This document shows, piece by piece, positions 5,654 through 5,734 of a stretch of 12,743 nucleotides of DNA. The notes beneath the pieces were generated by a model that worked only from the letters and a program-made list of their open reading frames with translations, did not search any database and had not been told where the DNA came from. The position numbers and the translations under genes are program-made. The DNA comes from Escherichia phage ECO95 1-6-1, in the sequence record OR845264.1; one strand, written 5' to 3'. Every line of letters starts with the position of its first letter. Position 1 is the stretch's first letter.

Positions 5654-5734
5654 TCACTGACGTCCGAAGACGCCTTTAGTTTTAAGATTATTACGATAGA
5701 ACTGCATCACATGTTCGTTATGGAAATTACTCAT
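5654..5734 (-). CDS. stp: Stp peptide (26 aa), modulator of host restriction / anticodon-nuclease complex
   Basis: ATG overlaps the ndd TAA (TAATG). Encodes [26 protein letters not shown], 26 aa, then TGA. Length and position immediately after ndd match T4 stp. Confidence 0.6.
5659..5674 (-). promoter_or_regulatory. C(UUCG)G tetraloop RNA hairpin in the last codons of stp, immediately upstream of the ac RBS
   Basis: - strand RNA GGCGUC-UUCG-GACGUC: 6-bp stem including one G-U pair, UUCG loop. Followed by the stp UGA and GAGGAAAAU AUG. Confidence 0.45.

Follow-up and report, generated by a model that had tools for sequence, protein, structure and literature searches.

A C(UUCG)G hairpin in the last codons of stp, the anticodon nuclease activator gene of a T4-like phage

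Introduction

A 26-codon reading frame wedged between ndd and ac in a phage genome raises two questions: is it the stp gene of bacteriophage T4, and what is the role of the UUCG hairpin carried by its last codons? The frame lies at 5654..5734 on the minus strand of a 12.7-kb stretch of DNA, the whole of which was analyzed and is referred to here as the window. An earlier note on this DNA had read the frame as stp, had placed its start within the ndd stop codon and had drawn a hairpin in its last six codons; we followed these readings through homology, gene order, RNA folding and comparison with related phages.

In T4, the tRNA-Lys anticodon nuclease PrrC is activated by Stp, a peptide of 26 residues that is both required and sufficient for this (PMC3014915). 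The peptide is made early, and its inhibition of EcoprrI unmasks latent PrrC from the restriction complex (PMC3014915; PMC12707154). It relieves restriction of type Ic (EcoprrI, EcoR124I) but not of type Ia (PMC3014915), and the cut tRNA is repaired by T4 polynucleotide kinase and RNA ligase 1 (PMC3014915; PMC12707154). The mode of EcoPrrI inhibition by Stp was still termed unknown in a 2025 review (PMC12707154). Loss-of-function mutations cluster at residues 4–14, the N-proximal 18 residues, almost invariant among T4 relatives, carry the activity, and deletion of the last eight stp codons reduces both activities only moderately (PMC3014915).

The window and its gene order

Aligned over its full length, the window is 96.6–96.9% identical to phages teqsoen, SHFML-26, slur02 and others, and the best local match of the 1 kb around stp reaches 97.7% identity to known phages. 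By these alignments the source of the window is a T4-like phage (Tequatrovirus). The minus strand, a detail absent from the earlier note, carries ndd, stp, the hairpin and ac. All five genes of the T4 order ndd–stp–ac–52.1–52 are present in the window, with 97–100% amino acid identity to T4 (Stp and Ac 100%, Ndd 99.3%, gp52 99.8%); in the T4 record NC_000866, stp is annotated at 165505..165585, sharing one base with ndd, and ac, 52.1 and 52 come after it. Upstream of stp, the ndd reading frame (5734..6189, minus strand) encodes the nucleoid disruption protein of 151 aa and matches Pfam PF06591 with 306 bits. The gene directly 3' of the stp hairpin is ac (5491..5646, minus strand), a reading frame for the acridine-sensitivity membrane protein of 51 aa, identified through phrog_2501, its identity to T4 Ac and the T4 annotation. 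Only 7 nt separate stp from ac. The tRNA repair genes pnk and rnlA, said to make Stp affordable, lie outside the 12.7-kb window, whose closest relatives are complete Tequatrovirus genomes.

Both ends of stp are shared with its neighbors. The ndd stop codon TAA (5736–5734) and the stp ATG (5734–5732) overlap by one base in the pentamer TAATG (5732..5736, minus strand), just as the earlier note had described. The same pentamer was read in T4, RB3, RB68, T2 and TOPO13 and in T4-like IMG/VR contigs with a Stp reading frame directly after ndd. Upstream of the stp AUG, only a weak AGG is found, 7 nt away. The TAATG arrangement suggests that stp translation may be coupled to that of ndd by termination and reinitiation. 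At the other end, the stp stop codon UGA (5656–5654) overlaps the GAGG SD sequence of ac (5655–5652), the two together occupying 5652..5656 on the minus strand, and the ac AUG follows at 5646–5644. This overlap, evident on reading the sequence, is borne out by alignment: the block TGAGGAAAATATG, which holds the stp stop and the ac SD, is invariant in 10 of 10 aligned Tevenvirinae sequences. Further upstream, the 58-nt spacer between ndd.1 and ndd contains another strong hairpin on sequence reading (about 6223..6246, minus strand), AUGGCCGC-AUGAAUAC-GCGGCCAU, followed by GGAG and, after that, by the ndd SD and AUG.

Identity of stp

The reading frame of 26 codons at 5654..5734, with an ATG start and a UGA stop, matches the Pfam family PF08133, "Anticodon nuclease activator family", with 75.3 bits against a cut-off of 25 (E=2e-21), residues 1–26 covering profile positions 1–26 of 26. 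It also matches PHROG 6763 (phrog_6763) from end to end (E=4e-21). Its translation is 100% identical to T4 Stp (NP_049878) over all 26 aa, including the 18 N-proximal residues, and it has the TAATG overlap, the stop/SD overlap with ac and the gene order in common with the T4 gene. At the nucleotide level, it differs from T4 stp at three positions, in codons 8, 15 and 25, all of them synonymous third-position transitions. The change in codon 25, from CGC in T4 to CGU in the window, converts a G-C pair of the hairpin to G.U and lowers its predicted stability from −10.0 to −7.3 kcal/mol.

On homology and position alike, the frame at 5654..5734 is stp, and no evidence against the identification came to light. 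A chance reading frame could be entertained on the grounds that AT-rich DNA often holds short ORFs (48 of at least 20 aa overlap 4000..7500), but its probability is negligible given the full-length Pfam and PHROG matches (E ~1e-21), the conservation of the 18 N-terminal residues in Straboviridae, Drexlerviridae, Kagunavirus and Caminolopintovirus despite many synonymous differences, and the findings that stp mutations of T4 map to the same ORF and that Stp supplied from a plasmid is sufficient for activity (PMC3014915).

A tblastn search with Stp matched 817 phage records, 422 of them at 99% peptide identity or more. Many phage records name the ORF "activator of host PrrC lysyl-tRNA endonuclease" or "type IC restriction inhibitor"; among the matches listed, the T4-like records mostly have only ndd, "hypothetical protein" or nothing annotated under the Stp match. 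A sequence search of the PDB returned no solved structure containing Stp. That the Stp of the window would act as a restriction inhibitor and PrrC activator is supported by its identity to the T4 peptide, for which both activities are known, and the unmasking of PrrC that the earlier note had described agrees with the literature, where it proceeds via EcoprrI inhibition (PMC3014915; PMC12707154). The same logic, in which a phage inhibitor of type I restriction-modification is sensed by an embedded abortive-infection effector, underlies the Ronin/HsdMS decoy model and Ocr-type triggers (bioRxiv 10.1101/2023.04.06.535777), although the proteins and effectors there are unrelated to the 26-aa Stp.

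Stp homologues and their tails

Homologues were collected from twelve annotated loci and 30 IMG/VR contigs, the latter through a scan with a degenerate DNA pattern in the core-coding region that is blind to the hairpin. Stp divides into a conserved functional core (residues 1–18) and a variable tail (residues 19–26). The core is conserved in Straboviridae, Drexlerviridae (Rtp, U136B, P818), Kagunavirus (K1ind2, ZCEC5) and Caminolopintovirus. Tails read TKGVFGRQ or TKGVFGR in the T4 and RB68 types, LTGVFGRP in TH22, NFGILGFKK or NFGILGSKNS in T2 and TOPO13, [TA]KGVFGK in Kagunavirus and Rtp, and KKMINSTNC-like in Tlsvirus-type phages.

The homologues outside the T4 group (Rtp gp6, U136B_009, those of Kagunavirus K1ind2 and ZCEC5, and that of Salmonella phage STGO-35-1) share with T4 Stp the core [MV]S[NS][FWH]HN[EG]H[VI]MQ[FWL][YH]R and the habit of a tiny ORF set among packed small early genes with overlaps at its start or stop. 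They differ in their tails (GVFGK, KKMINSTNC, AIINSYGA), in their genomic neighborhood, and in having no UUCG hairpin, even where the tail is the same GVFG. In two Drexlerviridae phages, the stp homologue lies about 0.5–0.6 kb from an annotated polynucleotide kinase (1..334 and 783..875 in Rtp; 801..881 and 1451..1654 in U136B, where the kinase gene is annotated as kinase/phosphatase). Since polynucleotide kinase belongs to the repair that undoes PrrC damage in T4, this proximity suggests that, beyond the T4 group, trigger and repair form a linked module.

Several individual loci depart from the usual arrangement. Two T4-like IMG/VR contigs (170,531 and 170,523 bp) have CGG in place of ATG as the first stp codon and TCC in place of TTC as the fourth. 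The gene looks inactivated in both because of the CGG start and because no in-frame start lies upstream of the core; everything else in the ORF, as well as the UUCG hairpin and the SD block, matches relatives with an intact gene exactly. In TH22 (Gaprivervirus), a predicted membrane ORF of 57 aa (636..808) is inserted between ndd and stp and ends at the TAA within ATGAGTAA, overlapping the stp start, so that a stop/start overlap persists, now with another upstream gene. The Stp frame of TH22 is open for 32 codons upstream and resembles a fusion to a hydrophobic ORF, a likeness that is most likely coincidental, the real upstream gene lying in another frame and ending in ATGAGTAA. On a Kagunavirus-like IMG/VR contig of 4 kb, the Stp frame (about 238..460) has no stop (..GVFGGMKITD..) and runs into the downstream gene, which would give a predicted 74-aa Stp fusion or reflects a sequencing frameshift.

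A C(UUCG)G hairpin at the end of the stp message

The hairpin GGCGUC-UUCG-GACGUC occupies 5659..5674 on the minus strand and is supported by folding, pair probabilities, stem detection and conservation. Read in the direction of the message, it runs from 5674 to 5659 with its loop at 5668–5665, and its six pairs include one G.U wobble (G5673.U5660) and a closing pair C5669–G5664. It spans stp codons 21–25 and the first base of codon 26, and so lies wholly inside the last eight codons, which are reportedly dispensable for the most part. Its end is 2 nt before the stp stop, 3 nt before the ac SD and 12 nt before the ac AUG (stem end at −13), which upholds the earlier placement of a UUCG hairpin in the last six codons directly before the ac ribosome binding site (RBS).

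By nearest-neighbor prediction, the isolated hairpin has a free energy of −7.3 kcal/mol. In a 241-nt context, every pair has a probability of 0.98–1.00, and in a 141-nt fold the hairpin is present in both the minimum free energy (MFE) and the centroid structures. Taken as a whole, the same 141 nt fold no more stably than shuffled versions (z = 0.00), so the structure is local only; the earlier impression of a tightly structured context therefore survives for the hairpin itself and fails for the region around it. Rfam covariance models at their gathering score gave no match anywhere in the window.

C(UUCG)G hairpins (Tuerk et al. 1988 PNAS 85:1364) are described, in the passages devoted to them in two later papers, as abundant in T4, predominantly intergenic and of varied function, including mRNA stabilization (PMC8948821; PMC4371310); the definition given in the first of these passages is a UUCG tetraloop closed by C-G and flanked by an inverted repeat of 2–8 or more bp, with G.U allowed (PMC8948821). 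The stp hairpin has the UUCG loop, the C-G closing pair and a 6-bp stem, and it lies on the transcribed (sense) strand, as do ndd, stp and ac. It is not intergenic or intercistronic, being at the end of a cistron but within coding codons 21–26. By its sequence and strand, the stp hairpin belongs to this known T4 class, a classic and described feature of T4 mRNA that the earlier note did not recognize.

The window and T4 itself show how consistently such hairpins are placed. CUUCGG occurs eight times in the window against 2.75 expected, and stems of 6–7 bp accompany three of the four occurrences on the minus (coding) strand (stp, 8567..8550 and 8338..8321) and none of the four on the plus strand. 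The first of the two comparators, UAAGGG-CUUCGG-CCCUUA (8550..8567, minus strand), has a 7-bp stem that begins with the rIIB stop codon and precedes the next AUG by 13 nt. The second, AAAGGG-CUUCGG-CCCUUU (8321..8338, minus strand), also has a 7-bp stem and is followed by UGUUUU, which makes it terminator-like, with an SD and AUG 16 nt downstream. Over 57 kb of T4, where transcription is entirely from the minus strand, 11 of 14 sense CUUCGG but 0 of 13 antisense have a stem of 6 bp or more (hypergeometric p ~3e-5); this sense-only occurrence shows that selection acts on the class as a whole in T4.

Most CUUCGG stems in the 57 kb open at a stop codon or a short distance past it (a-gt, a-gt.2, 39.1, soc, regA, 45, rIIB, denB.1). 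The stp hairpin shares with them the UUCG loop and C-G closure, the inverted repeat, the restriction to the sense strand and the position at a cistron end, and differs in occupying the final six codons of its gene instead of an intercistronic spacer. Hairpins within coding sequence were found in the same 57 kb in 55.3, in 40, weakly in 42, and as the gene 60 bypass hairpin, so that the stp case is not unique. Two of these coding CUUCGG stems, at 22348..22329 and 40838..40823 of T4, are those of gene 40 (8 bp, 45 nt into the gene, just after the uvsX stop) and of 55.3 (6 bp, 8–13 codons before the stop).

What the hairpin may do

The window is, with high probability, that of a T4-like phage with stp whose peptide is as in T4, and its hairpin is probably an RNA-level element over the Stp tail; it is not an intrinsic terminator. 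As such an element, the hairpin would be laid over codons 21–26, in the largely dispensable part of the peptide. T4-type phages would set C(UUCG)G hairpins, on the sense strand, at the 3' ends of their cistrons, the stp hairpin being one of them, and since the stp–ac gap of 7 nt leaves no intercistronic room, the hairpin would come to lie inside the last stp codons. Its most likely role, which we put forward tentatively, would be that of structural punctuation of the early polycistronic mRNA, or a barrier to 3' exonucleases. Once ribosomes had cleared, the very stable fold would form and shield the upstream ndd-stp message from 3'-to-5' exonucleases. As a secondary effect, ac initiation might be made dependent on ribosomes finishing stp.

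A rather unlikely alternative is that the hairpin mainly controls ac translation, either by shielding the start region of ac from the sequence before it or by blocking 30S standby binding. In the latter variant, ac would be translated chiefly by ribosomes that had just opened the hairpin in the course of terminating stp at the SD-overlapping UGA (translational coupling). The geometry is suggestive, with the stem ending at −13 from the ac AUG and the stop codon overlapping the SD; the block formed by the hairpin and UGAGGAAAAUAUG is nearly invariant, even with a different downstream gene, and the two further CUUCGG hairpins of the window lie 13–16 nt upstream of start codons. Against such control, the distance from hairpin to next AUG ranges from 9 to 37 nt across the T4 class, and several hairpins have no start nearby. 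This variability argues against a fixed role in initiation and makes the upstream cistron end, rather than the downstream initiation site, the common denominator. The predicted energy for opening the ac initiation region (−12 to +13) is 5.7 kcal/mol with the hairpin, compared with 4.7 ± 0.9 kcal/mol over 400 synonymous recodings (86th percentile). The idea that the hairpin frees the ac RBS is thus not supported, the opening energy being slightly raised and not lowered. Finally, T2 and TOPO13-type phages, with another Stp tail, keep stp, ac and the GAGGAG SD without the hairpin, which is consequently not essential.

The hairpin might instead be functionless, a passenger of the codons for GVFGR that is kept because the phages are about 95–97% identical. 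The hairpin is present in every Tevenvirinae sequence with the ..GVFGR.. tail (10 distinct sequences, 100% of cells paired), and T4 and RB3 have a perfect version with GACGCC at −10.0 kcal/mol. The three substitutions seen within it are all single-sided and keep pairing, G-C becoming G.U at two positions and U-A becoming U.G at one. A covariation test on the 10 Tevenvirinae sequences found no pair changed on both sides, and shuffles were identical to the observation; the lack of compensatory double changes is what a passenger would show. Because nearly any synonymous transition in the stem keeps pairing, the pattern is one of conservation and not covariation, and the three wobble changes weigh little. 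A passenger reading also gains from the intrinsic self-complementarity of GGN GUN ... GGN CGN C, with about 10% of usage-weighted GVFGRQ encodings pairing in register when G.U is allowed, and from the T2-type phages, which lost the hairpin and kept the genes.

Codon choice weighs on the other side. Judged by usage in the window, the tail codons of stp are rare C-ending ones (GGC 0.11, GTC 0.07, TTC 0.28), and the rare C-ending choice is made in four of the five hairpin codons. Among usage-weighted synonymous encodings of GVFGRQ, 0.48% are as stable and 2% contain CUUCGG, a statistic chosen post hoc. The identical G-V-F-G is spelled GGA/GGG GTG/GTA TTT GGA in Kagunavirus and Rtp-type phages, which have no hairpin. 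As phages with the same GVFG in other codons lack the hairpin and only about 0.5% of encodings fold as well, the peptide does not force the hairpin. The confinement of stemmed CUUCGG to the sense strand in T4 and the retention of the hairpin in the more divergent TH22 (Gaprivervirus), whose flanking codons have changed, likewise speak against a passenger. We consider this passenger reading doubtful, and slightly less likely than control of ac translation.

A transcriptional role between stp and ac, as terminator or attenuator, is very improbable. CUUCGG loops are frequent in T4 terminators, and the hairpin at 8338..8321 has a U-run and scored as terminator-like, but the bases after the stp stem, AGUGAGGAAAAU, form no U-tract, the terminator scan did not list the stp hairpin, and this hairpin sits within a translated frame, 7 nt short of the next gene. 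For want of a U-run, the stp hairpin was rejected as a Rho-independent terminator.

Significance

Both the stp gene and this kind of hairpin have long been known and are annotated or published T4 biology, so that the importance of the locus beyond correct annotation is small. The 26-codon gene is widely missed by automatic annotation, and as many T4-like genomes leave it unannotated, a scan that recovers it is useful. What is mildly new is a UUCG hairpin built from rare codons within a dispensable tail and missing where other codons spell the same amino acids, which makes the stp hairpin a clean and cheap test case for coding-embedded C(UUCG)G hairpins in T4 messages.

Stp is a textbook example of how a guard nuclease senses an anti-restriction factor of a phage. 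For its hairpin there is a further proposal that we regard as possible without favoring it: the last six stp codons may be dual-coding, with selection on the hairpin at least as strong as that on the peptide tail in T4-type phages, and the hairpin would either bound a stabilized ndd-stp message or gate ac, tuning the amount of Stp, a peptide that overcomes restriction and at the same time sets off abortive infection. If this is true, stp dosage, besides the presence of stp, would be part of the defense/counter-defense interface.
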